Of a stretch of 64,000 nucleotides of DNA, positions 5,011 through 36,525 are shown piece after piece (within the stretch, counting starts at the first letter, position 1; every line of letters begins with the position of its first letter). The stretch comes from Alphaproteobacteria bacterium (GTDB lineage Bacteria > Pseudomonadota > Alphaproteobacteria > SP197): positions 1,536,001 through 1,600,000 of the forward strand of contig OZ245842.1 of NCBI GenBank assembly GCA_965228895.1. The letters run 5' to 3'. The notes beneath the pieces were generated by a model, which did not search any database, was not told the DNA's origin, and worked only from the letters and a program-made list of their open reading frames with translations. A program made the translations under genes and the position numbers.

Positions 5011-5070
5011 CAATGCGATAGGGATGCGCACCCATTTTCGCAGCATGGCAAAACACCTTAACATCCTCCC

Positions 5071-5430
5071 ATGACATCCGATGAGTATGCCGGCTACTAC
5101 GCCGTAATCCGACAGATCCCCGAAGGCCGTGTCATGACCTATGGCGATATCGCGATCGCCGCCGGCCATCCCCGGTGGGCCCGGCGTGTCGGTTATGCGC
5201 TGTCATCCCTCAACGACAAGACGGTCCCATGGTGGCGGGTGATCAACGCCCAGGGCCGGATCAGTGTGGGCAAGGGCAGGGGCCATGAAGCGGCCGATAT
5301 GCAGCGTCATCTGCTCGAGGCGGAAGGTGTCTACATCGACCTGGAGGGCGTCGTCGACCTGGAGACCTATCGGTTCGTACCGAAAGCGAAGCGGGCAAAG
5401 AAAAAGGGGAGCCCGAAGGCTCCCCTTTGA
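5071..5430 (+). CDS. Alkyltransferase-like (ATL/YbaZ, MGMT-family) DNA-binding protein
   Basis: IPEGRVMTYGDIA, ARRVG, PWWRVIN (Trp in place of catalytic Cys). Confidence 0.85.
   Translation: MTSDEYAGYYAVIRQIPEGRVMTYGDIAIAAGHPRWARRVGYALSSLNDKTVPWWRVINAQGRISVGKGRGHEAADMQRHLLEAEGVYIDLEGVVDLETYRFVPKAKRAKKKGSPKAPL
5397..5428 (-). terminator. Rho-independent terminator of the convergent solute-binding gene, lying inside the ATL 3' end
   Basis: 11-bp stem with TTCG loop on the - strand, followed by a T tract. Confidence 0.7.
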
Positions 5431-5452
5431 CATGTGCCCAACAAGGGCGCGA

Positions 5453-7093: not shown

Positions 7094-7351
7094 AACGTCT
7101 CCTTGCTCCCATGGTGGTCTTGTGCCACAGCTGTTTTCGGAGCCTCGGCCAGAGGCCAAAGTTCCACCTGAGGTCATTGTTTTCGCCACTGCGTTGATGT
7201 CAACAGACTTCCCTCATGACCGCCCCCACAACGTCAAACAATGTCCCGTTTGCGACGCAAAGGGCTTGCGGCGTAAGCGAATTGGTGGCTTGAGGGGAGG
7301 CCGGCCAAAGGTGATGATACTCCTTCCGATTTGTAGTGATTGCTTACAGGC

Positions 7352-8410
7352 ATGAGTGTTCTTAGTTTTGCGCTTTATGCGGTGATTGCCGCGCTCAGCT
7401 TTTATCTTCTGATCGTCGGCAAGGCGCTCTTGCTTCCGGTCGTCGTCGCGGTCGTTTTTTGGTACCTCATCGCGACGTTGTCTTCGACTTATCGCCGCAT
7501 TCATGTGGGTGATATCCGCCTGCCGGGTTGGGCCAGTCTGACACTGGCGATCTTGACCTTTGTCGGTTTGCTGACCGGCGTCATCGAAATGGCGCGTGGC
7601 AACATTTCGGATGTCGTTGCGGCCGCGCCGACCTATCAGGCCAATCTCGAGGGTCTGATCGACCGCGTCTACAGCATGATAGGAATCAAGGAGGTGCCAA
7701 CGATTTCGCAGCTCCTGGATTCGATTGATCTCGGCAACATCGCAACGAAGCTGGCGGCATCGCTGACCAGCTTTGCCGGCAATGTCGGCATCATCCTTGT
7801 CTACGTCCTGTTTCTGTTGGTCGAGCAGGGCAGCTTCAACGCGAAACTTGAGGCGATGGTTGCCGACCCCGAGCGGCGCGCGCGTATCAAGCGGATGATC
7901 GGGCGGATCAACGCCGACGTCAGAACCTATATCTGGATCAAGACGCTGATGTCGGTTTTGACAGGCGGCATCAGTTACGTCGTCATGCGGATCGCCGGCG
8001 TTGACTTCGCCGAGTTCTGGGCGGTCATCATTTTTCTGTTGAATTACATCCCGACGATTGGCTCGATCCTTGGCATCGTGTTCCCGGCGGTACTGGCGCT
8101 CGTCCAGTTCAACACATTCGGCCCGTTCCTGATCGTGCTTGTCGGCATCGGTGCGGCCCAGGTGGTGATCGGCAACGTCCTGGAACCACGTCTGATGGGT
8201 CGCACCCTGAACCTCAGCCCATTGGTGATCTTGTTTTCACTTGCTCTTTGGGGTTCGATCTGGGGCATCATCGGCATGTTCTTGAGCGTGCCGATCATGG
8301 TGATCGCCGTGATCATCATGGCGCAGTTTCAGCCTACCCGCCCGGTCGCCATCTTTCTCTCCGCCAGCGGGCAAGTTGCCGAGGTAGACGACCCCAATAG
8401 GCCGGCGTGA
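7352..8410 (+). CDS. AI-2E/PerM-family transporter
   Basis: Multiple TM, LNYIPTIGS, GNVLEPRLMG, LSPLVILFSL. Confidence 0.88.
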   Translation: MSVLSFALYAVIAALSFYLLIVGKALLLPVVVAVVFWYLIATLSSTYRRIHVGDIRLPGWASLTLAILTFVGLLTGVIEMARGNISDVVAAAPTYQANLEGLIDRVYSMIGIKEVPTISQLLDSIDLGNIATKLAASLTSFAGNVGIILVYVLFLLVEQGSFNAKLEAMVADPERRARIKRMIGRINADVRTYIWIKTLMSVLTGGISYVVMRIAGVDFAEFWAVIIFLLNYIPTIGSILGIVFPAVLALVQFNTFGPFLIVLVGIGAAQVVIGNVLEPRLMGRTLNLSPLVILFSLALWGSIWGIIGMFLSVPIMVIAVIIMAQFQPTRPVAIFLSASGQVAEVDDPNRPA

Positions 8411-8465
8411 ACGATGCCCGTGGGGGTCACTGTGGACTGACGGAATTGCTTCGTGGTCGTTGACG

Positions 8466-9920
8466 ATGCTTGAAGCATTCAATCAATTCTGGGCCGAGCT
8501 GTTCGCCGTGGCGACACTGGTGCTGACGATCGTCTTGTCGGTCGGTGTCATCCTGCGAAAGCGTAACGAACGCTCGGCGCTCGGCTGGCTCGGCGTTATC
8601 CTGTTGTCGCCACCCCTGGGTTCAATTGCGTTTCTCCTGCTCGGCATCAACCGCATTCGCCGGCGCGCGCAGAAGACGTTGAGGCATGATCAGATGAGCC
8701 TGCTTGAGGGGCCCGAGAGTTCCGGGCTTCCCATGGCGCCGAGTCACGGTGGTTCGATCAAGGAGGACCGTGAATTGCCACCGCTGGCGCGGCTGGTCGA
8801 CCAAATCGTCGAGCGTCCTTTGGTGGACGGCAATCGTGTCGAGCCGTTGGTCGGCGGTGGTACGGCCTATCCCAGGATGCTTGAAGCGATCGACAAGGCG
8901 GAACGCTTGATTGTGCTCGCCACCTACATCTTTCGCCGCGATGAGGTTGGCTCCGCGTTCATCGCGGCCCTGGGGCGCGCAAAAAGGCGCGGCGTGGTGG
9001 TCAAGGTGCTGATCGATGGCGCGGGTTCGCACTATTCGTGGCCCACGGTCATCCAGGATTTGTTGGACGAAGGCGTTGACGCGGCCCGTTTCCTGCACTC
9101 TTTCTGGCCCTGGCAAATGCCGTATTTGAACCTGCGTACCCACCGCAAGCTGTTGATCGTCGACGGCCGAACGGGCTTTACCGGCGGCATGAACATCACT
9201 GGCAAACACGCACCCAAGGGCGAAGGCGATACCCATCATCGCGACGTCCATTTCGAAGTTGCCGGTCCAATCGTCGGTCAATTGTTGGACGTTTTTGCGG
9301 AAGACTGGCAGTTCACGACGGACGAGGCACCGGATGCCGGACTCTGGGTCAAGGAACTGGCACCGGCCGGTGCCATACATGCGCGGACGATCAGCGACGG
9401 CCCGGACGACCCGACCGATAGCCTTCGCTGGGTGATGCTGGGTGCGCTGACCCAAGCGAACCAGCGGATCTCAATCGCGACACCTTACTTTGTTCCCGAC
9501 CAGCAGCTGGCAACAGCGCTGTGCCTTGCCGCGTTGCGTGGGGTCGAGGTCGATGTCGTGATGCCAGCTAACAACAATCTACCGTTCGTGAAGTGGGCGT
9601 CGATGTCGCGCATGGACGAGCTGATCATGTCCGGTTGCCGATTGTGGATGTCCGAGCCGGACTTCGACCATTCGAAGCTTTTCGCGGTGGATGGCGCATG
9701 GAGTCTGATCGGCTCGGCCAATTGGGATGAGCGCAGCCTGCGTCTGAACTTTGAGCTCAATGTCGAGTGCTACGATGCAGCCCTGGCGGCCGATCTTCAT
9801 GCGATGATCGATGAGCGGCGTCAGACCGCCCAGGCAATAACGCTCGACATGCTGAAAGCGCGTTCGATGCCCGTCAAACTGCGCGACGGTGTTGCCCGGC
9901 TTTTTTCGCCCTACCTCTAG
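8466..9920 (+). CDS. cls: Cardiolipin synthase
   Basis: Two N-terminal TM and two HKD motifs (HRKLLIVD, HSKLFAVD). Confidence 0.88.
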   Translation: MLEAFNQFWAELFAVATLVLTIVLSVGVILRKRNERSALGWLGVILLSPPLGSIAFLLLGINRIRRRAQKTLRHDQMSLLEGPESSGLPMAPSHGGSIKEDRELPPLARLVDQIVERPLVDGNRVEPLVGGGTAYPRMLEAIDKAERLIVLATYIFRRDEVGSAFIAALGRAKRRGVVVKVLIDGAGSHYSWPTVIQDLLDEGVDAARFLHSFWPWQMPYLNLRTHRKLLIVDGRTGFTGGMNITGKHAPKGEGDTHHRDVHFEVAGPIVGQLLDVFAEDWQFTTDEAPDAGLWVKELAPAGAIHARTISDGPDDPTDSLRWVMLGALTQANQRISIATPYFVPDQQLATALCLAALRGVEVDVVMPANNNLPFVKWASMSRMDELIMSGCRLWMSEPDFDHSKLFAVDGAWSLIGSANWDERSLRLNFELNVECYDAALAADLHAMIDERRQTAQAITLDMLKARSMPVKLRDGVARLFSPYL

Positions 9921-11254
9921 AGGTTGCGCCGGTCCGTGTTGGACAAGGTCGAGTTCCAGGGCATGGGCAACAAGCGTGCCATCGCATCGATCAAGTTCTG
10001 ATCGAGGATGCCCGTAACCGGCAGGCCATATTCTTCCTGAAAGGTACGAATGGCTTTGCGGGTGTTGGGGCCGTCAACGCCGTCGACCGGCCCGTCCAGG
10101 CGGTTGTGCTCGCGCAGATAGCGTTGGACGGCGGCTACGTCGTTGCCCATGAGATCGCTTGCGATGGGAACCAGGCGGCGCGTCTGCTGGGCTGGTCGGA
10201 CTTCCAGGGTTTCGCGTAGGATCGTCGCGCGTTCCAGGCCAGCGCGGCGCAGATCTTCGGTCAGGACGCCAAGCAACCGCCTGCGATACTCCGACGCGGT
10301 CGCCGCAGCTTCCGTTTCGTCGCCTGACCGGGCGATCAGGACCCAGGCATAGGCTTCGATGATGTCTTGTTCCAGACCGATACCGTTGGCCAGGGCATAG
10401 GCCAGATTGATCTGGCCCGCCTCGCTGCCGCCGACGGCCGCCGCGTGATAGGCCGCAGCCGCACGGCCGGGGTCATGGGGGACACCGCGGCCAAAGTGAT
10501 ACATGACGCCCAGATTGTTCTGGGCAGTGGCAAAGCCTTGTTCGGCTGCCATACTGTACCAGTGGACGGCCTGCTCATAGTCCTGATCGACGCCGATACC
10601 GCGTTCATACATCAGGCCCAGATTGTTCTGCGCTTCCGCAAGCCCGCCATTGGCCGCTTGACGGTACCAAAAGAGCGCCTGTTCGGGATCGTTGCCGCTG
10701 CCGCCGGAGACGAAAGTGCGGCCCAGATTGTACTGCGCGGCCGCCATGCCCTGACTGGCGGCGCGATGATACCACAGCGACGCCAAATCGTTGTCGACCG
10801 GTACACCGGCACCCTTTTCCAAGGCGACCGCAAGACTGAATTGACCGGGTCCGTAACCGGCCTCGGCGGCTGACTGGTAAAGCTCGAAAGCCTTGCTCAG
10901 GTCCTGATCGAAACCCAGACCTCGGGCGTAAAAATCACCCAGCCGTTGTTGTGCTGCCGGCAGACCACGCGCCGCCGCATAGCCGTACCACGTCGCTGCC
11001 TCCTCATAGTCGGGTTCGCCCAGAAGGCCGGACTCATAAAGGACGCCCAGATTGAACTGGACGTCGACATGACCGGCCTGGCCCAGCTCTCGCCATTGGG
11101 TGACGGCCGACGGATAGTCGCCCTGGTGCACCGCCATCCAGCCATCGCTGAAGTCGGCCTTCGCCATCGGGGCGCCCAGCAGGATAGCGGCCGCCGCCAG
11201 CCAAAGACCGAGGCTTGGGCAATGCCATTTGATCCGCCACACTGCCGACATCAT
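9917..11254 (-). CDS. Exported SEL1-repeat protein with C-terminal peptidoglycan-binding domain
   Basis: Signal peptide, repeated AQxNLG..Y..G.G motifs, GPVDGVDGPNTRKAIRTFQ; start uncertain. Confidence 0.8.
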   Translation of the reverse strand: MMSAVWRIKWHCPSLGLWLAAAAILLGAPMAKADFSDGWMAVHQGDYPSAVTQWRELGQAGHVDVQFNLGVLYESGLLGEPDYEEAATWYGYAAARGLPAAQQRLGDFYARGLGFDQDLSKAFELYQSAAEAGYGPGQFSLAVALEKGAGVPVDNDLASLWYHRAASQGMAAAQYNLGRTFVSGGSGNDPEQALFWYRQAANGGLAEAQNNLGLMYERGIGVDQDYEQAVHWYSMAAEQGFATAQNNLGVMYHFGRGVPHDPGRAAAAYHAAAVGGSEAGQINLAYALANGIGLEQDIIEAYAWVLIARSGDETEAAATASEYRRRLLGVLTEDLRRAGLERATILRETLEVRPAQQTRRLVPIASDLMGNDVAAVQRYLREHNRLDGPVDGVDGPNTRKAIRTFQEEYGLPVTGILDQNLIDAMARLLPMPWNSTLSNTDRRNL

Positions 11255-11894
11255 GCCCGTCAAATCTGTTCCCGCTGCTCCACCCTACTGGTGCTCGGCC
11301 GCCGCTGACCTTGCGCGCCGCGATCCCACCCTTGCTCCTATCATTGCTGCCTACCCGGGTGAAGCCCTTGAACCCCATGGTGACATATTTCGAACGCTTG
11401 CCCGCGCGGTCGTCGGCCAGCAGATTTCGGTTCTGGCGGCCGAGCGCATCTGGAGCCGCCTAATCGCCGTCGCCGGCGATGTATCGCCGCAGAGATTTGT
11501 CCGCCTTTCCGCCGCGCAGTTGCGCGGTTGCGGCCTGACACGCCGGAAAGCCGACTGTCTGATCGCCGCCGCTCATGCGGCGTTGGCTGAGGACCAACAC
11601 TGGCCGTCCTGGCTTTCGCTGAGCGATGAGGAACTGGGCGTCCGGCTGACGCGGTTATCCGGCATCGGTCCTTGGACGGCGCATATGGTGCTGATCTTTG
11701 CGGCCGGGCGCGCCGATATTCTGCCGACCGGTGATATCGGGCTGCGGCGCGTGGCGGGCGAACTTTATGGCACAACGGGGAGGGCGATGGAGGTCGCGGA
11801 ACTGACGGTCTTGGCCGAGGGCTGGCGGCCCTGGCGCTCGGTCGCCGTTTGGTATCTATGGCGGTCGTTGGACCCGGTGCCCGTGGCGTATTGA
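11253..11894 (+). CDS. DNA-3-methyladenine glycosylase II (AlkA/HhH-GPD family)
   Basis: VGQQISV, HhH LSGIGPWTA, DILPTGD, WRPWRS. Confidence 0.85.
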   Translation: MPVKSVPAAPPYWCSAAADLARRDPTLAPIIAAYPGEALEPHGDIFRTLARAVVGQQISVLAAERIWSRLIAVAGDVSPQRFVRLSAAQLRGCGLTRRKADCLIAAAHAALAEDQHWPSWLSLSDEELGVRLTRLSGIGPWTAHMVLIFAAGRADILPTGDIGLRRVAGELYGTTGRAMEVAELTVLAEGWRPWRSVAVWYLWRSLDPVPVAY

Positions 11895-11911
11895 CGCCGC
11901 GGAAATCTGCT

Positions 11912-12208
11912 CTAGTGGTCGCGGGCGTAAAAGGCGAGGCCGACGAGACCCAGAACGGCGATCACGGCGACCGAAATGAACGGATCGACGCTGGTGATGC
12001 CGCTGACAACCCAGTTCACCCAGCCGGACGCCTGTTCGCCGATGTTGGAGCCGCTTTGAACATGCTGGGCGATGAGCAGGGCGACGATGGTCCCGATGGC
12101 GACAACGCCCGTTCCGGTGACAAAGGACATCATGCGCGACCAGAACGATGCCTTGTGCCGCGAGGTCGCGAAGATACGCTTTTTGACTCGGGGTTCAGAT
12201 ACGATCAT
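11912..12208 (-). CDS. Small hypothetical membrane protein (two hydrophobic segments) downstream of the riboswitch
   Basis: AAGGGA SD 7 nt before ATG at 12208; basic N-terminus and two TM stretches. Confidence 0.65.
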   Translation of the reverse strand: MIVSEPRVKKRIFATSRHKASFWSRMMSFVTGTGVVAIGTIVALLIAQHVQSGSNIGEQASGWVNWVVSGITSVDPFISVAVIAVLGLVGLAFYARDH

Positions 12209-12214
12209 CACGTC

Positions 12215-12299
12215 ATCCCTTCGGTAACCCCGCTACCTGACGCGCCCAGGCCGGAGGCTTTGCGTCCCGGCGTCGCCGCCGGTTTGCCGTTTCGGGGAT
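12215..12299 (-). promoter_or_regulatory. Cyclic di-GMP-I (GEMM) riboswitch aptamer
   Basis: - strand reads GGCAAACC-ggcg-GCGA-cgcc-GGGACGCAAAGCCTCCGGCCT...AGGTAGCGGGGTTACCGA, matching the Vibrio Vc2 aptamer core as recalled. Confidence 0.88.
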
Positions 12300-19118: not shown

Positions 19119-20822
19119 TTATTCGAAAGCCCAGCCGCGTGTCAGGTTGGGATCGTCCAACGTTTCGATGGCGGTACCGCCGGCCGGATCGGACGGTTGA
19201 CCGTCGGCATCCAGTGACTGGATTGACGGCGCCATCGTGAACATGGCGGGATCGCCGCTGGTTCCATTCGTTTCGCCAGTCGGATTGAGTGTCATCACAT
19301 ACTCATCCGCGGACCAGGCAAAGGGTTCACTGCTGGCAGTGATCTGAACCGATGTTACGCCGACCATCGGCGCGGACTCAGCACGGCTCATGGTGATGTC
19401 CGTCGCTTCGCCGAGCGGCTCGATCACCAGATCGATGGTCTGCTGATCGGACGAGGTCGCAAGTTCAATGTCGCCGCCGTCATAGACACCGATCGACGAC
19501 GTATCCTCAAGGCCGGGAACTAGACGCTCGGGCGTTAGTCGGCCCATCGCCTCCAGCAGGCGGAAAATGCTGAGGTAACCGTCATACTGGGCGCCGACGA
19601 GATTGATCTGGGCGTTGAAAACATCGTTTTCGGCATCCAGCACGTTCAAGACCGTCTCTTGACCGGCTTCGCGCAGGCGACGGCGGGAGTCATGAACCTC
19701 GATCGCAATGTTGACGGCGTTTTCCAGCAGCTCGACACGTTGGCGTGAGGTCAGAAGAACTTCCCAGGCAAGCTCGACATCCTCGACCACCTGCCGATTG
19801 GTCGCCGCACGCTCGTGAATCGCCGCGACGTGCTCATAAGCCGACTGCGCGACATTGGCCTGGTTGGCAAAGCCGGCAAACAACTGCCAGTTCGCCTCAA
19901 CCAGGATCGCCGCGTCACGTCTAACGCCTTCGATTCCGTCGACATCGTCTTCGACGTTCAGGCGGCCGACCAGATCGACACGCGGCCAATAGGCCGATCG
20001 CGCCTGATCCCGTGTCTCATCGGCCAGCAGGACCAAGGCCTGACTGCTTGCCGTTTGAGGATTCTCTGCCAGGCCGATAGCAATGGCATCGTTCAGGCTG
20101 GGCGGCAACTCGTCTTCAGGAATGCGCGGCAGTTCCATGCTCGCAATATCCGGCGGGTGGCCGAACAGGCGATTGTAGCGCGCTATGGCCTGTTGCAGCG
20201 TACCTTCGAAGGCGACACGGCGCTCCTCGGCAAGCTGGAGGCGTGTCTTCGCTTGTAGGACGTCCAACGCCAAACCGGAGCCACGCTCGACGCGCTCGTT
20301 TTCCAGGTTCAGCTGGGTCGCGATGGTATCGACATTGCGGTCGGACAGATCGATCAGGGCAAGCGCGCGCAGCACGTCAAGATAGGCCGCGACACCTTCC
20401 AGGATCAGACGCTGGGTATCATCCTCAAGCGTGAACTCGCTGAGGTCGCGGGTAATCTGGGCGGCGTCATAGGTCGCGTTGGTGTTGTAACCGTCGAAGA
20501 TGTTCTGGCGCAGCGTTGCGGTAGCACGCGCACGTGACAGTTCCAGCGGATCACCGGGATCGGTAATGCGCGATTGCGGGCTGTCGGTCGACTCGTAGCC
20601 ATAATCGGCGGAGACGTCGATGGTCGGCAGGTAGCCGGCAAATGCTTCGTTGATGCCTTCTTCGGCCGCCTCGACCTGATTGCGCAGACTCTTTAGCGTG
20701 GGGTTGTCACGCAGCAGGAACGCAATTTCTTCCTCCAGGCTTTCTGCCTGGACCGAAGTCGCTTGCGCGGCCAGAACCGCAAACACCGCTATTGGTGAGA
20801 TAAAACGCGAACGCCCGTTCAT
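19119..20822 (-). CDS. TolC-family type I secretion outer-membrane protein with acidic C-terminal extension
   Basis: Signal peptide (VQA|ES), GYLPTID, RQNIFDG, VLDAENDVFNA. Confidence 0.85.
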   Translation of the reverse strand: MNGRSRFISPIAVFAVLAAQATSVQAESLEEEIAFLLRDNPTLKSLRNQVEAAEEGINEAFAGYLPTIDVSADYGYESTDSPQSRITDPGDPLELSRARATATLRQNIFDGYNTNATYDAAQITRDLSEFTLEDDTQRLILEGVAAYLDVLRALALIDLSDRNVDTIATQLNLENERVERGSGLALDVLQAKTRLQLAEERRVAFEGTLQQAIARYNRLFGHPPDIASMELPRIPEDELPPSLNDAIAIGLAENPQTASSQALVLLADETRDQARSAYWPRVDLVGRLNVEDDVDGIEGVRRDAAILVEANWQLFAGFANQANVAQSAYEHVAAIHERAATNRQVVEDVELAWEVLLTSRQRVELLENAVNIAIEVHDSRRRLREAGQETVLNVLDAENDVFNAQINLVGAQYDGYLSIFRLLEAMGRLTPERLVPGLEDTSSIGVYDGGDIELATSSDQQTIDLVIEPLGEATDITMSRAESAPMVGVTSVQITASSEPFAWSADEYVMTLNPTGETNGTSGDPAMFTMAPSIQSLDADGQPSDPAGGTAIETLDDPNLTRGWAFE

Positions 20823-21029
20823 TCTTCCCCCTGGCCACACATAAGGCCACGACGACCCGACACCTGGGTGCCCCAGCCAATGCCAGACCACATAAGCTGC
20901 GGCAATATACCACACGAAGCGGTGAGATCAACGCAACGATCCAGCGCAAGTCGTTGACAAGATTATGAGAATCCTATCGGCAGACTCTCAAGATAGGGGA
21001 TAAGAACAGCAATTCTGGAACCGGCCCGA

Positions 21030-22688
21030 TCAAAGCGTGACCTGAAGGGCACCCAGGCGTTCGGTCAACTTGACGTTCTCGCCGTAATCCACGGGAACGG
21101 CAATCAACGCGGGACCGTCTTGGGAAAAGGCCTCGTCGAGCGCCCCGGGAAGTTGTTCTGCGCCGCCGATGGTGCGGCCCCATGCCCCGAAGGAACGGGC
21201 TAGAAGTTCGAAATCCGGGTTGTCGAACGTCAAATTGGAATGGCGCCCGTTGTAGTGATCCTGCTGCTTCCACTTGATCAGACCATACTCGCCGTCCAGC
21301 CAGATCAGCGACACGATGTTCAGCTTGCGGCGCACGGCGGTTTCCAGGTCCTGAATGTTCATCAGAAACCCCGCATCGCCGCAGATCGCCAAGACCCGCT
21401 TGTCGGGATAGGCAATCTTCGCGCCCATGGCGCCGGGAAAGGCAAACCCCATCGAACAGAAGCCGTTGGAGATCAGGCAGGTGTTCGGTTCGTCGCACTG
21501 GTAATAGCGGGCGATCCACATTTTGTGTGCGCCGACATCCGACAGCACGATGTCCTCTGGCCCCATGAAGTTTCTGACGTCGCATAAAATGCGCTGAGGC
21601 TTCACCGGGAACTGGTCGTCGTCGCACTCGCTCCAAAGGTCGGCCGTGATGCGGTCGCGCAGGGGTGCCCGTTCCGCGATGTCGAACAACGGCAAATCGC
21701 CTTCGAAGCGGGCGTTTAGCTCTTCGTTGATCTGCCATAGCGCGTCGGCAATGTCGGAAACGATCTCGACATCGACCGGATAATCCTCGTCGATTTCCGC
21801 CGGCAGGAAGTCGATATGGACGAGGGTCTTGCCGCCCTTCTTATTCCAATGGGTCGGCGCGTACTCGACGAGGTCGTAGCCAACGGCGATGACCAGGTCG
21901 GCCTTGTCCAGTTCCGCGTTGATGTGGTCGCGCTGCTGCAGGCCAATGGTAAAGAGACAATGCGGGTCGTTGCGGGGCACGGCACCCTTGCCCATGAACG
22001 TGTTGACGACGCCAATGCCGGCTTTGCTCGCCAGCCGGCGAAGCTGTTTGGCGGCGCGTTTTCGCAGCGCACCGTTGCCCGACAGGATGATCGGATTCTT
22101 GGCAACGGCAATGGCATCGACCGCGGCCCGCACGGCCTTGTAGTCGGCCGCCGCGCGCCTGGTCTTGCGCGGCATAATCGGTTCTTTCGCGACATCGTGT
22201 TTCGCGATGTCCTCCGGCAGTTCGAGTACGCTGACCCCCGGCTTTTCCTGCTCGGCCGTTTTGAATGCCTTGCGTACGGTCTCAGGAATCGTATCGGCGC
22301 CGGTGATGCTGTGGGCCCATTTGCTGATCGGCTTCAGCATGCCAATCGCATCCATGTTCTGATGGCTTTCCTTGTGCAGCCTGCTGGTGCTCGCCTGACC
22401 GATGATGGCGACCACAGGCGAACGGTCCATGTTGGCATCGGCCAGGCCGGTCACAAGATTGGTCGCGCCTGGCCCGAGCGTCGCCAGACACACGCCGGGC
22501 TTGCCGGTCAACCGGCCATAGGTATCGGCCATAAAGGCGGCGGCCTGCTCGTGACGGCACAGCACAAAGTCGATGGAACTATCCATCAACGAGATCATGA
22601 GGTCGGCGTTTTCCTCACCCGGCAGGCCGAAGATACGCTCGACGCCTTCCGCCTCCAGGCAGCGGACAAACAGATCAGATGCTTTCAT
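21030..22688 (-). CDS. Acetolactate synthase large subunit-like ThDP enzyme
   Basis: FGLPGEEN, RHEQAAAFMA, TLGPGATN, GDAGF ThDP motif. Confidence 0.88.
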   Translation of the reverse strand: MKASDLFVRCLEAEGVERIFGLPGEENADLMISLMDSSIDFVLCRHEQAAAFMADTYGRLTGKPGVCLATLGPGATNLVTGLADANMDRSPVVAIIGQASTSRLHKESHQNMDAIGMLKPISKWAHSITGADTIPETVRKAFKTAEQEKPGVSVLELPEDIAKHDVAKEPIMPRKTRRAAADYKAVRAAVDAIAVAKNPIILSGNGALRKRAAKQLRRLASKAGIGVVNTFMGKGAVPRNDPHCLFTIGLQQRDHINAELDKADLVIAVGYDLVEYAPTHWNKKGGKTLVHIDFLPAEIDEDYPVDVEIVSDIADALWQINEELNARFEGDLPLFDIAERAPLRDRITADLWSECDDDQFPVKPQRILCDVRNFMGPEDIVLSDVGAHKMWIARYYQCDEPNTCLISNGFCSMGFAFPGAMGAKIAYPDKRVLAICGDAGFLMNIQDLETAVRRKLNIVSLIWLDGEYGLIKWKQQDHYNGRHSNLTFDNPDFELLARSFGAWGRTIGGAEQLPGALDEAFSQDGPALIAVPVDYGENVKLTERLGALQVTL

Positions 22689-22835: not shown

Positions 22836-24005
22836 TTAGTAGGAGCGGGGCAGGTCGAGCACGTGTTCGGCGAGGTAGGAGAGGATGAGATTGGTCGAGA
22901 TCGGCGCGACGCGGTAGAGCCGGGTCTCCCGGAACTTGCGCTCGATGTCGAATTCCTCGGCGAAGCCGAACCCGCCATGGGTCTGGACACACATGTCGGC
23001 GGCCTGCCACGAGGCGTCGGCCGATAGCAGTTTCGCCATGTTGGCCTCAGGCCCGCAGGGCTGCTCGTGGTCATAGAGGCTGGCGGCCTTGGTGACCATC
23101 AGGTTGGCTGCCTCGGTACGCGCAAAGGCTTCGGCAATCGGGAACTGAATGCCTTGGTTTTGGCCGATCGGCCGATCGAACACCCGGCGTTCGCCGGCAT
23201 AGGCCGTCGCCCGGTCGATGAACCAGCGGGCATCGCCGATACACTCGGCGGCAATCAGGATCCGTTCCGCGTTCATGCCCGAAAGGATGTAGCGGAAACC
23301 CATTCCCTCTTCGCCGATCAACGCGTCCGCCGGTACCTCGAGGTCATCGAAAAAGATCTCCGTTGTCGCGTGGTTCATCATGGTACGGATCGGGCGGATG
23401 GTGACGCCCTTGCCGATGGTTTCGCGCAGGTCGACCAGGAATACCGAGAGACCTTCGGTACGCTTGGCGACCTCCTCGCGCGCTGTCGTACGCGCCAACA
23501 GCACCATGAGATCGGAGTGCTCGGCGCGCGACGTCCAGATCTTCTGGCCGTTGATGATGTAGCGGTCACCGTCGCGTCGTGCGGTGGTCTTCAGCGATGT
23601 CGTATCGGTGCCGCTGCCGGGTTCGGTGACACCGAACGCCTGAAGCCGCAGCTTGCCGGCGGCGATCTCAGGCAGGTAGCGCGCCTTCTGCGCATCCGAC
23701 CCATGCCGCAGCACCGTGCCCATGGTGTACATCTGCGCATGGCACGCCGCGCCGTTGCCGCCGGAATGATGGATCTCGCTCAAGATAGCGACCGCAGCAG
23801 AGAGTGGCAGGCCGCTGCCGCCATAGCTTTCGGGGATCAGGCTGGCAAGATAGCCGGCCTCGGTCAGCGCGGCTACGAACTCGCCGGGATAGGCCCGTGC
23901 GCTGTCTTTCTCGCGCCAATAGGCATCAGGGAACCGCTGGCACAAGGCGCGGACGCCGTCGCGGATCTCCTGCCAATCGTGATCCTGCGGTACGGCGTCC
24001 GGCAT
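22836..24005 (-). CDS. Acyl-CoA dehydrogenase
   Basis: FGVTEPGSGTD, NGQKIW, LIGEEG, GGFGFAEEFDIERKFRE. Confidence 0.9.
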   Translation of the reverse strand: MPDAVPQDHDWQEIRDGVRALCQRFPDAYWREKDSARAYPGEFVAALTEAGYLASLIPESYGGSGLPLSAAVAILSEIHHSGGNGAACHAQMYTMGTVLRHGSDAQKARYLPEIAAGKLRLQAFGVTEPGSGTDTTSLKTTARRDGDRYIINGQKIWTSRAEHSDLMVLLARTTAREEVAKRTEGLSVFLVDLRETIGKGVTIRPIRTMMNHATTEIFFDDLEVPADALIGEEGMGFRYILSGMNAERILIAAECIGDARWFIDRATAYAGERRVFDRPIGQNQGIQFPIAEAFARTEAANLMVTKAASLYDHEQPCGPEANMAKLLSADASWQAADMCVQTHGGFGFAEEFDIERKFRETRLYRVAPISTNLILSYLAEHVLDLPRSY

Positions 24006-24022
24006 GTCGTCGGTCCGATGCC

Positions 24023-25258
24023 CTACGCGGACTTGCCCTGGCCGGGCTCGGTCGCGTTCACCAGGCAGGCCATGTTGCCATAGGGGTGTTTGTTGTCGCG
24101 CATCAGCTGGTGTGCCTTGCCGATTTCGTCGAACGTGTAGGTCGACGACAGACACGGATCGATCTTGCGGTCGATAACCAGCTGGTTGACCGCAGCGGCC
24201 TGCTCATCGTTCGACAGATGGCTGCCCTGCAGTCGCTTCTGACGCATCCAGTGGTAGCGCAGGTCCATGGTGATGTTGTAGCCGGTGGTGCCGGCGCAGA
24301 TCACGATCATGCCGCCGGTCGCGGCGACAAAACCGCTGGTCGGCAGGGTCGCTTCGCCGGGATGCTCAAAGACGATGCGCGGGCTGACCCGCTCGCCGCA
24401 GGCCTCCCAGATCGCCTTGCCGAACGCGCGCGCGCCCTTGGCCCAGGCGCCGTACTCCTTGCTCTCCGTGTTCGGCATCAGGCCCCAGTGGTCGAAGTCG
24501 TTACGGTTGATGACGCCGACCGCGCCGTGATCCAGGCAGAACTGGCGCTTGTCTTCGTCGGATATCACGGCGACGGCGCGTCCGCCTTCGGCCGCGGTGA
24601 TCTGTAGCGCCATGCTGCCCAGGCCGCCGGCCGCGCCCCAGACCAGGACCACGTCGTCCTTTTCGATGACGTTGGGGTGCCAGCCCATCAGCATGCGGTA
24701 GGCCGTCGAGGCACACAGCAGGTAGCAGCCCGCTTCCTCCCAGGAGAGGTGCTTCGGCTTAATCTGCAACTGATGCGCCTGGGCCTTGGCGAACTGGCAA
24801 TAACTGCCGTAGTTCGTCTGGTAGCCCCAGATTCGCGTGGATTCGGCCAGCATGGGATCGCGGCCGCTGAGGACCCAGGGATCGTCCGCCGGCCACCAGC
24901 CGGAATGTACGACGACCTCGTCGCCCGGTTTGACGTTGGTGACCTCGCTGCCGACCTTCCAGACGATGCCCGAGCAGTCGGACCCGCCGGCGTGAAAGTC
25001 TTCGGGTTCGCCCTGTTTTTGACGCACCGCGATAACGTCGACCGGATAGCCCAGCGCCGCCCAGACGTTGTTGTAGTTGATGCCGGTCGCCATGGTGTAG
25101 ACCAACACCTCATCCGGCTTGATCTCTGGCACATCGATGATTTCGCGCTGCCAGGCGCTCTCGGGCTCGCCAAAACGGTCCTGACGGACCAAGAAGGCAT
25201 GCATTTTTTCCGGGACTTCGCCAAGCGGCGGCCGTTCGCCAAGCGCGCAAATTTCCAT
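24023..25258 (-). CDS. ccr: Crotonyl-CoA carboxylase/reductase-family enzyme (variant)
   Basis: [40 protein letters not shown]. Confidence 0.82.
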
Positions 25259-25332
25259 GTCAGATTCCCTGATCCTCGACTGTGTTGCAGTGCACAATGA
25301 TGGCCCTATCTCGCCCGGCTGGGCGCGATCCG

Positions 25333-27123
25333 TCAAGGCGATTTCGGCGCGTAAGCTCTCGCCAGGGCGGTGAGCAGGGGTATCGCATCGTCTATATCGC
25401 GACAGACCTGGGCGCCGGCGGCCTCCAGCTCAGCGGCCACATCGACCGGCAGGCTGGTGTTGGAGCCCGACGGAATCTGGTTGAGGCGGCCGCCGACCAG
25501 CACCGGCACGTCCACGCCGAGCTCCGCCAATTCGCCGACCAACGATTCGACAAATCCAAGGGCGACGCCGTTATAGGTGCTGATGCACACGAGATCGGCA
25601 CCGCTAGACGCGGCCATTTCGGCGAGATCGTCCGGGTCGACGGATATGCCGCCGTCCTCCACCGTGACCGCCAGACCCTGCATGACCGTATCCAGCACGG
25701 ACTTGCCGTGCTCGTGCACATCGGTGGTTGCGGTGAGCACCGTCAGCTTAGCAGCGGCGATCGTGGCGCGCTGGCTATCGTCGATACGGGCCAATCGGCT
25801 TTCGGCCATGCGGGCAATCTCCTTATGGACGGGTGAGGCGACTCGGGGACGGAAACCCGCCGGCGCGTCGGAGTCCGGCTCACCATCGCCGAACAAGCGC
25901 TCCAGCCGCCTGGCACCGAGCCGGCGCAACACCAGCAGCATCTCCAACACATCGCCGGTGTCGATGCCGGCTTCGGTCAGGCCGGCGAGCGTGCGATCGC
26001 GGAAGGCGACCGCGCCGGTGCATAGCTGTTCGGTGTCGGCCTCTACCGCTGCTAGATCGACGGGCGGCAGCCGGTCTGCGGTCAGGTCGATCAATCGGTC
26101 GGCGAACAACTGGGCATCGACGATCTCGTCGATATCGGGAATACGCTCGTGTTCGGAAACCGGGACCGGGTTGATCGCATGGCCGGATGGGCGCATGCGC
26201 TGGCCGGCGATGTCGATCTCCAGATAGGCGGCCAGACTGGCATAGTTGGCGGCCGGGCTGCCGCGATAGCTCGTTGTGTTGCCGTAAACCATGGTGCCGG
26301 GACCGTCGCTCATCTCGGCAAGAGCCAACAGGAAGGCAAGCCGCCCGCCCCCTTCGCCGAAGTGATGGCCATAACAGTGGGCCATTCGGGCGCCAACCAG
26401 GGCATCGACGATATGACGCTCCAACAGCGCAAAGCCGAGAGCTGAGGTGAGGTCCGAAAACGATGCGGCAAAGCCGTCATCAAGGTTGGAGTGGACGAGG
26501 ACCGGCACCGGTTGCGCCGCCATCAAGCCGAGCGCGCGGATCGTCGACGCCGCGGACGTAACATCGTCGTCCCAGTTTGGCAGACGGAAGGTGAACCACT
26601 GACCCAGATTGCCGATCGCGGTCGAGCCTGCGGCAAGTGCCCACTTCGTGTTGTCGAAAGCGCCCGGAAAGCCCAGCACGAAGTCGCCAAAGTGTGGCGC
26701 GACCGGCGCCATCTGGGTCAATGCCGCGAAGGACTCTGGCCCGTCCAGCATGACGCCTGTGCCGCGCGGTCCTTTGCGCCGAAGGTCAAGGGGATAGCCC
26801 ATGGCCCAATCCAGGCACAGGCCGTAGCGGTCGACGGTGACTCCCTGTTCGCCGCAGAGGTCATAGACATCGTGATAGGCGCGACGGTTCTTGTCGGGGT
26901 CGCGAAAGCCGATCTGGGCGTGGCGCATGATGCGTCCGTCGGCGATAGCCGCCGACTTGTAGTCGGCCTCCGAATTGACGTCATGCTCGATAAGAAAAGG
27001 GCAAGACCCGACAGTCCAGTCTCTGGCTGCGGCCGCGCCTTCGTCCAGCGAATCCGCGCCCGACGGCAGATCCAATTCGGGCAACAGCCTCTTGCGGTTG
27101 AGCGGCTCGCGGGTCTCTGTCAT
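25333..27123 (-). CDS. Cobalamin-dependent mutase, 2-methyleneglutarate-mutase-like
   Basis: C-terminal B12 domain (TDVHEHGK = DxHxxG, ISTYNG, VGG); N-terminal [20 protein letters not shown] motifs recalled from Eubacterium barkeri Mgm. Confidence 0.75.
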
Positions 27124-27179
27124 GACGCAGCCATACTAGCGCCATGGGCAACGCCCTGGCGATCAGGTAAACTGAGACC

Positions 27180-27713
27180 ATGTTCCGCGACCGCACGTTA
27201 ATGCCCGCCGAGGCTCTTCGCCTGGCTGCGCTCGGTATTCTGGGCGAACACGGCCACATGAGCTATGCGGCGCTTGCCACCGAGGTGCGGCTGTTCACGG
27301 CGAGTTTCGGTGGGTCGCCGGTTGATGTCATGTCGTCATCGATTGAGCTGTTGCGTTTCGAGGGGCTGATCGCGGTCAAGGACGAGGCCGATGATCCCGG
27401 CGACGTCGTGGTCGAACTGACCGACGGCGGTCGCGCGATGATCGGTGAACTGCTCCAGGCCACGATCAGGCCGGGAAACGCCTATTCGAAGCTGCTGACC
27501 GCGCTCAAAATGCGTTTCCTGCACATGCTGCCGCCCGATCAACAGGCCGAGCAGATCGAGATGCTGACCGAAGCGCGCCGCGCCGAATTGGCGCGTCTGG
27601 TCGACCTGCGCGGCAAACTGGCCGACGGCCATCCCGGTTTCCTCACCTGGCTCGACCACGAAATCGGCCGCATCGAAACCGACCTTTCCTGGCTCAGCGG
27701 TCTGAGCAGTTAG
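27180..27713 (+). CDS. PadR-like winged-helix transcriptional regulator
   Basis: LAALGILGE, wing motif ELTDGGRA, helical C-terminus; divergent from the mutase gene. Confidence 0.6.
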   Translation: MFRDRTLMPAEALRLAALGILGEHGHMSYAALATEVRLFTASFGGSPVDVMSSSIELLRFEGLIAVKDEADDPGDVVVELTDGGRAMIGELLQATIRPGNAYSKLLTALKMRFLHMLPPDQQAEQIEMLTEARRAELARLVDLRGKLADGHPGFLTWLDHEIGRIETDLSWLSGLSS

Positions 27714-28013: not shown

Positions 28014-29138
28014 TCAGTTTTCGGCAAAGACGCGGGCGAACGTGGCGCTTTCCCGGATCGCGTCGGCCAGAATGCTGTGGCCGGTGGCGTTCCAGTGGTT
28101 GTTGAACGGAAACTCGAACCGCTCGCCGGTCTCGTCATGGTGGGCAATGAAGAGCGGCTGCAGGTTGATGACCTCGAAACCCTGGCTTGCCGCCTGGGTC
28201 CACAGGAAGGTCATCATCTGCGCGGCAAAACTGTCCTGTGCGGCGGCCAGCCGTTCGGGGTCGTAGAGTTCCGGGCGCAGACCGTCGAGCGTGATAAGGA
28301 TCTGCTCGGGCCTCAACCCGCTCTCGATCGGCAACAGCTTTAGGAACTGATCGACGGCCAGGTAGGACCGCGCCAGCCGTTCCTCGCTCGCTTCGGCCGC
28401 CGTGTTGCCGGCGTAGAGCGCGTCGTCCTCATCCGTCGCGGTCGTGCGTTGCGCCAGCATTTGGGGCAAAGCGCCGACTTGGAGATTTCGGTAGAGGTAG
28501 GCGACCAGCGCCGATTGACGCAGGGCTTGGCGCACCAGACTCTCGGTGGGGCGCGGCGTCGGTGTCAGGACCAGCGCGCCGTCGCCGTCCTCGGTGAAGA
28601 ACGTCATGCCCCGCTGGCCTGGTTGCAGGTCGTCGGGCATCAGGCTTTCGTCGAAGTCGTTGCCGACGACGTTCACCACCAGCATGTCCGGTCCAAAGGT
28701 CTGGCCGACATAGCGCGACCATACGAGATACTGGCTAAGCGGCGCGTAGGCGGCGCCGAAACCGTAGACACGCATGTCGTCGCCCAACGCCGCTGATAGC
28801 CGGCCCTGGGCCGTTTCGGACCAATCGACCTGTATAGCTTCAATATAGCTGTCGCCGATGATCGCCAGCAGCGGCAGTGGACTATCGGCCTCGTAGTCAA
28901 TGTCGCTTAGGAAGCCGACGTTGTTGACGTGGCGCTGACGGGCGTTCTTGAAATCCCAGTCTTGGGAGTACGAGAAATCACGGTCGGGGACGAAGCGGTA
29001 GACACTGCCGTCCTCGTTCATCGGCGCGACCACGAGGCCCTCGTTATAGGGCATGAAGCGCAAGACGATTTCAGCCAAAACCAGCGGTACCGCGAAACCG
29101 ATGGCGATGGTGATCAAGGTGAGGGCGAGTTTACGCAC
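28014..29138 (-). CDS. Membrane-anchored SGNH/GDSL hydrolase-like protein
   Basis: N-terminal TM, GDSY block I, GND, NNHWNATGH block V. Confidence 0.75.
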   Translation of the reverse strand: MRKLALTLITIAIGFAVPLVLAEIVLRFMPYNEGLVVAPMNEDGSVYRFVPDRDFSYSQDWDFKNARQRHVNNVGFLSDIDYEADSPLPLLAIIGDSYIEAIQVDWSETAQGRLSAALGDDMRVYGFGAAYAPLSQYLVWSRYVGQTFGPDMLVVNVVGNDFDESLMPDDLQPGQRGMTFFTEDGDGALVLTPTPRPTESLVRQALRQSALVAYLYRNLQVGALPQMLAQRTTATDEDDALYAGNTAAEASEERLARSYLAVDQFLKLLPIESGLRPEQILITLDGLRPELYDPERLAAAQDSFAAQMMTFLWTQAASQGFEVINLQPLFIAHHDETGERFEFPFNNHWNATGHSILADAIRESATFARVFAEN

Positions 29139-35073: not shown

Positions 35074-36525
35074 ATGCTGATGACCGGCGACCAGTACCGT
35101 GAGTCTCTAAAAGACGGCCGCGAGGTCTATATCGACGGCGAGCGCGTCACGAACGTGCCGGAACATCAGGCCTTCAAGCCGATCGTCGATGTGCGCGCGC
35201 GCATCTACGATATGGCGGGCGAAAACGCATTCCGCTCCACCATGGCGTTTTCCAAGGACGGCGAGGACTACGCCGTCGCCTGGCAGCCGCCCTATACCCA
35301 GGACGACTGGTGGGCCAAGCGCGATTGGGTCGACACGGTCATGAAGGAGATCGGCGGTGTCGTAACCCGCATCGGCGACGAGACGGTCGGTGAGATGTGG
35401 TCGCTGGCCGACGGCAAGGACATCTTGAATCAGGTCGATGACTCCTGGTCGAAGAACATCGATCACCACATCGACAATGTGCTGAAGAACGACATCTTCC
35501 ACGTCTCCGCCAACACCGATCCCAAGGGCGACCGCTCAAAGGCGCCGCAGGATCAGGACCCCGACATGCTGCTGCATGTGGTGAAGGAGACCGATGCCGG
35601 CATCGTGGTGCGCGGCGCCAAGTACGAAACCGCGGCCGCCTACGCCCATCAGGCCTTCGTCAAGCCGACCATCGCCAACTGGGGCGATGCCAAGCTCTCC
35701 GACTACGCGCTCGGTTTCATCTGCCCGATGAACGCGGAAGGTCTCAAGCACATCTGCCGCAATGGTTTTGCCGGGGTCAAACCAAAGGCCGACTATCCGC
35801 TCTCCAACGGTTTCGACGAGGTCGACACGCTGCTTGTCTTCGACAACGTGCTGGTGCCTTGGGAGAACGTGTTGTTCTACCGGCACACGGCGGCGGCCAG
35901 TTTCATTCGCGGCACGCTGCATCGCTACAGCGCCTACATGTTCGTCTTGCGCATCATGTACATCGCCGACCTCATGATCGGAACGGCGCTCTTTAATGTG
36001 CGTCAGACCGGCCTCGACAAACAGCAGGCGGTGCAGGAGAAGCTGGCGCAGCTGGCCTGTTACCGCGAAGGCATCAACGCGCATTTATCCGGCGCCATCG
36101 CCTTGGCCGAGAAGAGCCCCGGCGGCTTCCTGATGCCCAACCAGTCGCTGCTCTATACCGGCCGTGTGCTCGCCTGTTCACAATTGCCGGCGATGATGCA
36201 TCTGGCGCGCGAATTGTGCGGCGGTCAGATCTGTGTCACGCCGGACAGCCCATCCTTCTTGTCGGACGACACGAAGGCGTGGATGGAAAAATTCTACAAC
36301 GTCAACGACGATTGGCAGGCTGACGACCGGCGCAAGCTTCTGGCGTTCGGGCGCGACTTGCTGAATTCCGACTATGCCGGCCATAAGGTGACGTTCCAGT
36401 TGTTCGCCCAGTCGCCGCCATTCGCGCATCTGGGCGCCGTCTACCGCAACTTCGACTTCGATCAGTCGCTGGGCTTCGTCAAAACCGCGGCTGGTCTGTC
36501 GGACCGGGTGATGGCCAAGAAGTAG
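35074..36525 (+). CDS. 4-hydroxyphenylacetate 3-hydroxylase (HpaB/PvcC)-family monooxygenase, oxygenase component
   Basis: TGDQYRESLKDGREVYIDGERV, DPKGDRS, GIVVRGAK, FDEVDTLLVFDNVLVPWE. Confidence 0.88.
   Translation: MLMTGDQYRESLKDGREVYIDGERVTNVPEHQAFKPIVDVRARIYDMAGENAFRSTMAFSKDGEDYAVAWQPPYTQDDWWAKRDWVDTVMKEIGGVVTRIGDETVGEMWSLADGKDILNQVDDSWSKNIDHHIDNVLKNDIFHVSANTDPKGDRSKAPQDQDPDMLLHVVKETDAGIVVRGAKYETAAAYAHQAFVKPTIANWGDAKLSDYALGFICPMNAEGLKHICRNGFAGVKPKADYPLSNGFDEVDTLLVFDNVLVPWENVLFYRHTAAASFIRGTLHRYSAYMFVLRIMYIADLMIGTALFNVRQTGLDKQQAVQEKLAQLACYREGINAHLSGAIALAEKSPGGFLMPNQSLLYTGRVLACSQLPAMMHLARELCGGQICVTPDSPSFLSDDTKAWMEKFYNVNDDWQADDRRKLLAFGRDLLNSDYAGHKVTFQLFAQSPPFAHLGAVYRNFDFDQSLGFVKTAAGLSDRVMAKK

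Follow-up and report, generated by a model that had tools for sequence, protein, structure and literature searches.

A 64,000-nt stretch of an Alphaproteobacteria bacterium genome (GCA_965228895.1, contig OZ245842.1, positions 1,536,001 to 1,600,000; this whole stretch is called the window below) carries a gene for an intact single-chain cobalamin (B12) enzyme of an unnamed family, in which a TIM barrel predicted to resemble those of GlmE and the aminomutases is joined to a His-on B12-binding domain. The overall picture, to which we assign a probability of about 60%, is that this mutase would use adenosylcobalamin (AdoCbl) radical chemistry for the 1,2-rearrangement of a small acid that stems from an amino or imino acid, and that the genes next to it form a lineage-specific mosaic. 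The mosaic is seen by comparison of the loci of many genomes, and the substrate and chemistry are most likely of the kind just named, the chemistry by analogy with the fold class. What is interesting in this locus is a real, intact B12 enzyme of an uncharacterised family, and not the analogy to the Ccr-Ecm-Mcd series of the ethylmalonyl-CoA pathway, which the first-pass annotation of this DNA had drawn.

Family and predicted structure of the mutase

The mutase gene and its parts are placed in the window as follows.
25333..27123, minus strand: B12 mutase of 596 aa, a single chain of an unnamed family, from the open reading frame (ORF) and its translation; only PF02310 matches
25801..27072, minus strand: N-terminal substrate barrel, residues 18-441, GlmE/aminomutase-like by predicted fold only
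25336..25791, minus strand: C-terminal Rossmann-type B12-binding domain, about residues 445-596, from PF02310, matches to B12 domains in the PDB, and VIA-align
25705..25722, minus strand: DxHxxG motif (D468-V-H470-E-H-G473), the His-on cobalamin ligand motif, from the translation

The match of PF02310 (Pfam) scored 43.4 bits over residues 459-547, and in an alignment of 32 mutase-family sequences D468, H470 and G473 were invariant, as were G544, G545 and two lysines, K56 and K474. The B12 domain had been described as intact before and is so, and all the mutase motifs quoted with that description were present in the translation. Residues 1-440 gave no sequence match in Pfam, NCBIfam or the PDB. 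When the 32 family members were searched against Pfam, nothing but PF02310 was matched: PF01642, the catalytic domain of methylmalonyl-CoA mutase (MCM), Ecm and Icm, matched neither the window mutase nor the family members, PF06368 (GlmE) matched 0 of the 32 at E<=5, and PF09043 (lysine and ornithine aminomutases) matched none of them. A profile of the family retrieved B12 domains only from all PDB sequences, and hhalign of the family against two proteobacterial GlmE sequences, picked by PF06368 and a 353-357-bit match to 1CB7/6H9E, gave a probability of 0.2%, the GlmE alignment being shallow. The window's genome has no PF06368 gene.

The AlphaFold2 model of the mutase had a predicted local distance difference test score of 91.3 and a predicted template modelling score of 0.91. 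In the predicted structure the barrel is packed on the B12 domain, which satisfies the general layout of cobalamin isomerases. In VIA-align comparisons, the closest match of the barrel was GlmE (6h9e_B; Z 28.6, 369 residues aligned, root-mean-square deviation 3.5), followed by lysine 5,6-aminomutase alpha (Z 26.3, 25.7 and 24.1), ornithine aminomutase (Z 22) and the acyl-CoA mutases (Z 17-21, MCM at 19-21), and the B12 domain was matched to those of MeaB-bound MCM and of GlmS (Z 15-16). This order of Z scores therefore points to the fold class of the small-substrate mutases and not to that of Ecm/MCM. The earlier statement that the enzyme is neither an ethylmalonyl-CoA nor a methylmalonyl-CoA mutase was thus upheld by the missing PF01642 match and by a predicted barrel and B12 domain of the glutamate-mutase kind.

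Glutamate mutase (GlmE/GlmS; 1CB7, 6H9E; PF06368) is similar in combining a TIM barrel with a Rossmann-type DxHxxG B12 domain, but it is made of two subunits where the window mutase is one fused chain, and the PF06368 and hhalign results above show no sequence-level relation between the two. In GlmE, glutamate is bound by an arginine triad and Glu171. A further likeness lies elsewhere in the window's genome, where a mutase paralog, 34% identical (G000:C1:2064921-2068048, locus L042), directly follows an accessory gene of the GlmL family (TIGR01319, 229.4 bits; PF13941), with IclR and DAO genes adjoining. Paralogs of this 34% type were present in 13 other genomes of the order. Two genomes each have a pair of same-strand mutase copies close together, 47-52% identical to the query, at positions 4940-8471 of locus L033 (G164:C19) and 8001-12220 of locus L118.

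A search for relatives returned 1488 sequences at E<=0.001 among 8000 scored candidates, and none of the 120 listed bears a specific name, the source names being generic only. The family comprises 571, 336 and 133 representative clusters at E values of 1e-3, 1e-10 and 1e-30, respectively, and is patchy within the class, with 15 of 401 genomes carrying it, the window's own included. Most of the hosts are aerobic Alphaproteobacteria of sea and soil, and cultured ones include Tistlia consotensis, Ruegeria, Roseovarius albus and Leisingera. To our knowledge, few AdoCbl isomerase families are known, and the recent additions are relatives of MCM. Since the present family is sizeable (the 336 clusters at E<=1e-10), unnamed, without a solved structure, fused and GlmE-like in its predicted fold, and has a recurring reductase partner, it is a concrete target for new B12 chemistry.

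Genomic neighbourhood of the mutase family and proposed reaction

Outside the window, the neighbours of the mutase are, judging from their sequences, enzymes of amino-acid and betaine type. Of the 80 loci of the genome_contigs set, at least 41 have a gene resembling pyrroline-5-carboxylate reductase (P5CR) next to the mutase, counted with one tblastn query; this is a lower bound because Pfam showed two further divergent P5CR-like partners among loci labelled 'other'. The partner scores below the ProC cut-offs (128.5 vs 254 bits), and its gene is often translationally coupled to the mutase gene, stop and start codons overlapping. Other neighbours encode dimethylglycine-dehydrogenase-like proteins, ornithine cyclodeaminase, M20 amidohydrolases, DAO oxidases, PhyH and Rieske oxygenases, and aminotransferases. 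A literature search on AdoCbl mutases clustered with P5CR found nothing relevant.

No Ccr was found within 8 kb of the mutase in the 15 foreign loci of the class sample, where one weak acyl-CoA dehydrogenase (ACAD) match was seen (29% identity). In 7 of the 80 genome_contigs loci a Ccr at 87-91% identity follows the mutase, and in an eighth an unrelated Ccr (52%) lies 6 kb away.

By analogy with the fold class, homolysis of AdoCbl in the mutase would yield a 5'-deoxyadenosyl radical, which would abstract a hydrogen from the substrate; after a 1,2-shift the hydrogen would be returned. The substrate would probably be a small free acid from an amino or imino acid and not a CoA thioester, and in most genomes the mutase gene is coupled to that of the P5CR-like NAD(P)H enzyme. 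Somewhat short of even odds is given to a stronger proposal, in which the family would perform an undescribed B12 radical rearrangement that is neither the glutamate, the methyleneglutarate, an acyl-CoA nor a known aminomutase reaction. A skeletal shift on a 2-imino/2-oxo dicarboxylate, or the contraction or expansion of a cyclic imino acid ring, with the product normally fixed by the P5CR-like enzyme, would be one example.

The same neighbourhoods would also suit an aminomutase family, which would perform a pyridoxal-phosphate-assisted 1,2-amino shift like that of lysine 5,6- or ornithine 4,5-aminomutase (1XRS, 8T0V, 3KP1), the product cyclising to an imine that the P5CR-like partner would reduce. 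The barrel Z scores against these enzymes (22-26) are nearly as high as that against GlmE, the neighbours elsewhere include amino-acid enzymes (ornithine cyclodeaminase, M20, DAO-type, aminotransferases and dimethylglycine-dehydrogenase-like), and K56 and K474 are invariant lysines. However, PF09043 is missing from all 32 members, the subunit layout is different, no site for pyridoxal phosphate could be mapped, and the match to GlmE is better by about 2 Z units and extends over more of the barrel. We consider an aminomutase of this kind decidedly unlikely.

Orthology with 2-methyleneglutarate mutase (Mgm), which interconverts 2-methyleneglutarate and 3-methylitaconate, appears highly improbable. 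Mgm of Eubacterium barkeri is a single chain of about 600 aa with an N-terminal catalytic part and a C-terminal DxHxxG domain, and it acts on a free acid; the overall architecture is thus common to both enzymes, and the GlmL-family gene beside the 34% paralog is typical of free-acid mutases. Against this stand the mostly aerobic alphaproteobacterial hosts, a commonest partner that is an imine-type reductase, and a window in which no nicotinate-catabolism family was found among the Pfam-scanned ORFs, as had been stated from the sequence beforehand. The name 2-methyleneglutarate mutase was absent from the 120 listed relatives, the listed members of 10 distant clusters, 53 relatives of a Clostridia member and the Atlas clusters, searches that depend on shared words or large clusters, so that kinship may exist all the same. 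No literature was found that links Mgm with Ccr, or the E. barkeri nicotinate genes with the mutase family. According to the available part of a 2009 survey, none of the sequenced prokaryote genomes covered there had an MGM (PMC2667541).

Layout of the locus and its history within the order

Besides the mutase, the following genes make up the locus.
24023..25258, minus strand, true ATG at 25258: Ccr2, an enoyl-CoA carboxylase/reductase (ECR) paralog of 411 aa (TIGR01751)
22836..24005, minus strand, true ATG at 24005: ACAD of 389 aa, with the Pfam ACAD N, M and C domains
21030..22688, minus strand: acetolactate-synthase (ALS)-like thiamine-pyrophosphate (TPP) enzyme of 552 aa (NF006187, 747.9 bits)
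27180..27713, plus strand, divergent: AphA-like/PadR-type regulator (PF14557, 123.6 bits, full length)
19119..20915, minus strand: TolC-family outer membrane protein (TIGR01844, 271.9 bits), which directly follows Ccr2 in other genera

The co-oriented trio of mutase, Ccr2 and ACAD reported by the first-pass annotation is present, with gaps of 74 and 17 bp close to the values given (about 75 and 17 bp), and the divergent regulator it called PadR-like belongs to the PadR-type AphA_like family and begins 56 bp from the mutase start. The group was incomplete in one respect, as a fourth co-oriented minus-strand gene, the ALS-like TPP enzyme, follows the ACAD after 147 bp.

In the 33 genomes of the order, all from one family, Ccr2 was found in 29 and a mutase orthologue (59-87% identical) in 11: all three of the window's genus, 2 of 3 in genus g309 and 6 of 23 in genus g2. 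Wherever it is present, the mutase sits between the regulator and Ccr2, directly upstream of the latter (11/11). Ccr2 occurs without the mutase in 18 of the 29 genomes; the regulator stands directly beside Ccr2, with no mutase between them, in 13 of the 29 loci, and 5 have neither regulator nor mutase within 1.5 kb. Across genera the block HlyD-ABC-cyclase-TolC-Ccr2-[mutase]-AphA-aminotransferase-TPR keeps its order, and gene order here therefore reflects descent.

Downstream of Ccr2, the ACAD and the ALS-like gene were observed only in the window's genus (3/3); the ALS-like gene is at the locus in G409 and G410 and absent from the loci of G413 and G406. The other 8 mutase-bearing loci of the order have no ACAD: TolC comes directly after Ccr2 in 6 of them, and 2 show no downstream match within 1.5 kb, one being cut at a contig end. 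Extra DNA of about 1.4 kb separates Ccr2 from the ACAD in G409 (L278), and about 3.4 kb separates the ACAD from the ALS-like gene in G410 (L279), indicating that this stretch is still being rearranged.

In a tree of 100 mutase sequences (quick IQ-TREE run, LG+G4, with one row removed for its shortness), a single clade (SH-aLRT 99) nested among P5CR-linked mutases held all 10 Ccr2-linked ones, so the mutase-Ccr2 adjacency arose once. The 7 Ccr-linked loci of the genome_contigs set add no further support, because they are largely from the same genomes as the order search. All 10 Ccr2-linked mutases keep 94 of the 102 columns that are at least 95% conserved in the other 88 sequences, and two columns (E157, T191) are replaced in all 10. 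Seven control clades show 0-2 such columns, and a functional shift in the Ccr2-linked clade was rejected on this account.

The comparison indicates that in the ancestor of the order the mutase was inserted once between the PadR/AphA-like regulator and an existing Ccr2 with a putative promoter of its own, and that a common ACAD and an ALS-like TPP enzyme came in later, downstream of Ccr2, within the window's genus. By this history the trio is a mosaic of at least two units, the mutase on the one hand and Ccr2-ACAD-ALS on the other, and not a pathway of the Ccr-Ecm-Mcd type.

Ccr2 and the canonical ecm-ccr-mcd cluster

Ccr2 is, by sequence comparison, a distinct, very conserved and widespread Ccr paralog. 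It passes the TIGR01751 cut-off of 378.55 bits with 541.9 bits; the canonical Ccr of the same genome, to which it is 52% identical, scores 618 bits. Its best PDB matches were AntE, 9KVA and 4GI2. At the place of the glutamate of the canonical CO2 pocket Ccr2 has Gln147, and the pocket Asn, Tyr and His are retained; the motif is Y-Q-H in 115 of 115 Ccr2-type sequences vs Y-E-H in 4 of 4 canonical Ccr. AntE and 4GI2 carry Glu at this position and 9KVA carries Asn. Gln147 was equated with Glu171 of KsCcr only through the GYE motif of AntE, 4GI2 and the canonical Ccr1. As far as the accessible portion of the KsCcr paper goes, the CO2-pocket residues are Asn81, Phe/Tyr170, Glu171 and His365, and the E171A variant has a 17-fold lower kcat and a 25-fold higher Km for crotonyl-CoA (PMC6628652). 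In this way the window separates out a second, very conserved and widespread type of Ccr, with Gln in place of the pocket Glu.

The ECR of Mesorhizobium metallidurans (9KVA) has in common with Ccr2 an insertion around RQKQG and the lack of Glu at the GYE position (Asn in 9KVA, Gln in Ccr2), but a score of 491 bits over 405 residues indicates that the two are not of the same orthologue group. The preprint on 9KVA treats its oligomeric state and, in the part accessible, gives no physiological role (PMC12632816). No physiological role for the Gln-type Ccr2 was found in the literature searched.

Among five related mutase-bearing genomes, four have both Ccr2 and a second, canonical Ccr, and the fifth, a fragmented metagenome-assembled genome, showed only Ccr2. 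A metagenome scan returned at least 80 Ccr2 loci at 75-91% identity, with a DNA GC content of 0.37-0.72 among the matches listed. Informative loci were those with more than 600 nt upstream of Ccr2, and among the matches listed 68 of 70 were without a mutase and 2 had one. The metagenome neighbours vary and include PrpE-like synthetases, GntR regulators, binding proteins, luciferase-like oxidoreductases and enoyl-CoA hydratases; in 24 loci examined (of L166-L243, where Ccr2 is 75-83% identical), a PrpE-like synthetase, a luciferase-like oxidoreductase and a creatinase-like M24 protein were each found in 3.

A separate canonical ecm-ccr-mcd cluster, whose presence had been proposed as a check, was found elsewhere in the genome at 4.716-4.721 Mb. 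Its Ccr, at 4.718 Mb, is flanked by an MCM-family mutase and an ACAD, whereas Ccr2 has no adjacent ecm or mcd. The ACAD of this cluster scores 611 bits to 6ES9 (Mcd) and 246 bits to 8CIW, which bears the name (2S)-methylsuccinyl-CoA dehydrogenase, and the genome has two true PF01642 genes, both outside the window.

The window ACAD is, on the evidence of its sequence, of a widespread alphaproteobacterial type and not Mcd-like. Its C-terminal APISTNLILSY is present as quoted by the first-pass annotation, but the likeness drawn there to dehydrogenases of methylsuccinate clusters did not hold: the score to 6ES9 was low (154.7 bits, against the 611 bits of the canonical-cluster ACAD), the best PDB matches were generic short- and medium-chain ACADs, and the Mcd N-terminal extension of about 170 aa is not in the 389-aa protein. 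Relatives at E<=1e-80 were found in 150 of 401 class genomes, a tally that takes in one unpublished genome (G240). No Ccr, mutase or ALS-like gene was found within 1.5 kb of the relatives at the 19 loci examined, and at 6 of these a family III CoA-transferase adjoins.

Putative transcription signals upstream of Ccr2

Two elements in the gap between the mutase and Ccr2 genes were considered.
25331..25336, minus strand: TTGACG, a -35-like hexamer ascribed to Ccr2 from the sequence and locus comparison, its promoter role being putative
25283..25296, minus strand: TGT-N8-ACA dyad TGTGCACTGCAACA, a candidate PadR-type operator 38 nt upstream of the Ccr2 ATG

A conserved promoter-like element belongs to Ccr2 itself and overlaps the stop codon of the mutase gene. 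This TTGAC element, which came from locus comparison, was observed in 26 of the 29 loci of the order at 55-95 nt ahead of the Ccr2 ATG, namely in all 11 mutase-bearing loci and in 15 of the 18 mutase-free ones, and in the window the mutase stop codon TGA (25335-25333) lies inside TTGACG (25336-25331). In genus g309 the sequence upstream of Ccr2 is nearly identical with or without the mutase. The dyad TGTGCACTGCAACA is the sole exact copy in the window and occurs in 8 of 11 mutase-bearing loci and in 0 of 18 mutase-free ones. The available text of PMC3506622 gives the canonical PadR site as ATGT and ACAT (ATGT/ACAT) separated by 8-10 nt, and the TGT-N8-ACA dyad fits this pattern. The regulator-mutase intergenic regions have no such dyad and show other conserved motifs instead.

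A repeat pair of the GGCA(A/C)AG type (CTGGCAA ... GGCA[AC]AGT) was observed about 70 nt upstream of the mutase ATG in L045, L046, L048, L051, L052 and L165. These loci are all outside the window's genus, which has a different sequence there.

A generic promoter and terminator scan of the mutase-Ccr2 and Ccr2-ACAD gaps found no terminator-like site and no consensus promoter site, and an Rfam scan found no cobalamin riboswitch or other family near the mutase, Ccr2 and ACAD genes.

One pathway or a mosaic

The first-pass annotation had proposed that the trio mirrors the Ccr-Ecm-Mcd logic, and had named beforehand an unconserved adjacency among the findings that would refute it. The proposal was not supported, and the adjacency of mutase, ccr and ACAD was not conserved: the ACAD is at the locus only in the genus, Ccr2 is mostly without a mutase, and the mutase is usually with a P5CR-like gene. 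The trio has in common with the ethylmalonyl-CoA pathway that a B12 mutase, a Ccr-family enzyme and an ACAD stand side by side, but the mutase is not of the MCM family, Ccr2 is 52% identical to the canonical Ccr with Glu replaced by Gln, and the ACAD has neither the N-terminal extension of Mcd nor similarity to it. For annotation, the lesson is that close spacing of co-oriented genes in a single genome was no guide to a pathway in this case.

A narrower alternative, limited to this lineage, would join the mutase and Ccr2, together with the ACAD within the genus, into a single regulated pathway for a branched C5/C6 acid; in it the mutase would rearrange the skeleton and the Gln-type ECR and the ACAD would process the CoA ester. 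The genes lie on the same strand with short gaps free of terminator-like sites, the orthologues of the mutase stand directly upstream of Ccr2 in 11 of 11 cases, and the insertion point falls precisely between the regulator and its putative target. None of the 6 Ccr2-linked genomes tested showed the P5CR-like partner, and the replacement in all 115 Ccr2 sequences of the Glu that positions crotonyl-CoA may mean a different, possibly charged, substrate, in line with the 25-fold rise in Km of E171A that the accessible part of PMC6628652 gives. The adjacency, however, is one evolutionary event and counts once, and Ccr2 persists where there is no mutase, in 18 of the 29 Ccr2-bearing genomes of the order and, among the matches listed, in 68 of 70 metagenome loci. 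In addition, Ccr2 has its own conserved upstream elements and the mutase different ones, the predicted barrel is nearer to free-acid and amino-acid mutases than to CoA mutases, no CoA ligase or transferase was found among the Pfam-scanned ORFs of the window, at conserved positions the mutase has not changed more than its P5CR-linked kin have, and the ACAD is genus-specific at the locus. Such a lineage pathway is regarded as unlikely, and the bolder version, in which the mutase would have been rewired in the window's lineage to feed the Gln-type enoyl-CoA carboxylase/reductase, as very unlikely.

Several observations weigh against the preferred explanation of a small-acid mutase placed in a gene mosaic. 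Searches for the P5CR-like partner found none in the window's genome (best match 30% identical) and none in five further Ccr2-linked genomes (27-28% in two weak matches, nothing in the other three), and the mutase must therefore work with something else here. At 5782-7868 of L112 (Roseovarius albus), the genes just upstream of the mutase encode the beta and alpha subunits of a SucCD-like CoA ligase, a hint of CoA chemistry in the vicinity of some family members; no other locus seen has a CoA-activating enzyme adjacent to the mutase. All 11 orthologues of the order are kept at one place, the mutase having diverged to about 60% identity over three genera. The candidate promoter and operator are sequence motifs that the generic promoter scan did not flag, and since the mutase and Ccr2 genes are co-oriented, 74-95 bp apart, with gaps that have no terminator-like site, read-through transcription is possible.

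Other features of the window

Between the regulator and a small Sel1-repeat gene lies an ORF of 374 aa (28014-29138, minus strand) with no Pfam or NCBIfam match; a relative from the genus has it at 87% conservation, and none was found in the G413 locus. A c-di-GMP-I-GGC riboswitch aptamer (RF03167) was detected at 12219-12297 on the minus strand with 62.6 bits (gathering score 59), and directly downstream of it lies an ORF of 99 aa without a Pfam match (11912-12211, minus strand). The window also carries two genes for HpaB-family flavin monooxygenases, at 35074-36525 (plus strand) and 52082-53617 (minus strand), the second of which adjoins an ORF (50780-51949, minus strand) in which a flavin-reductase domain is joined to a LysR substrate-binding domain.

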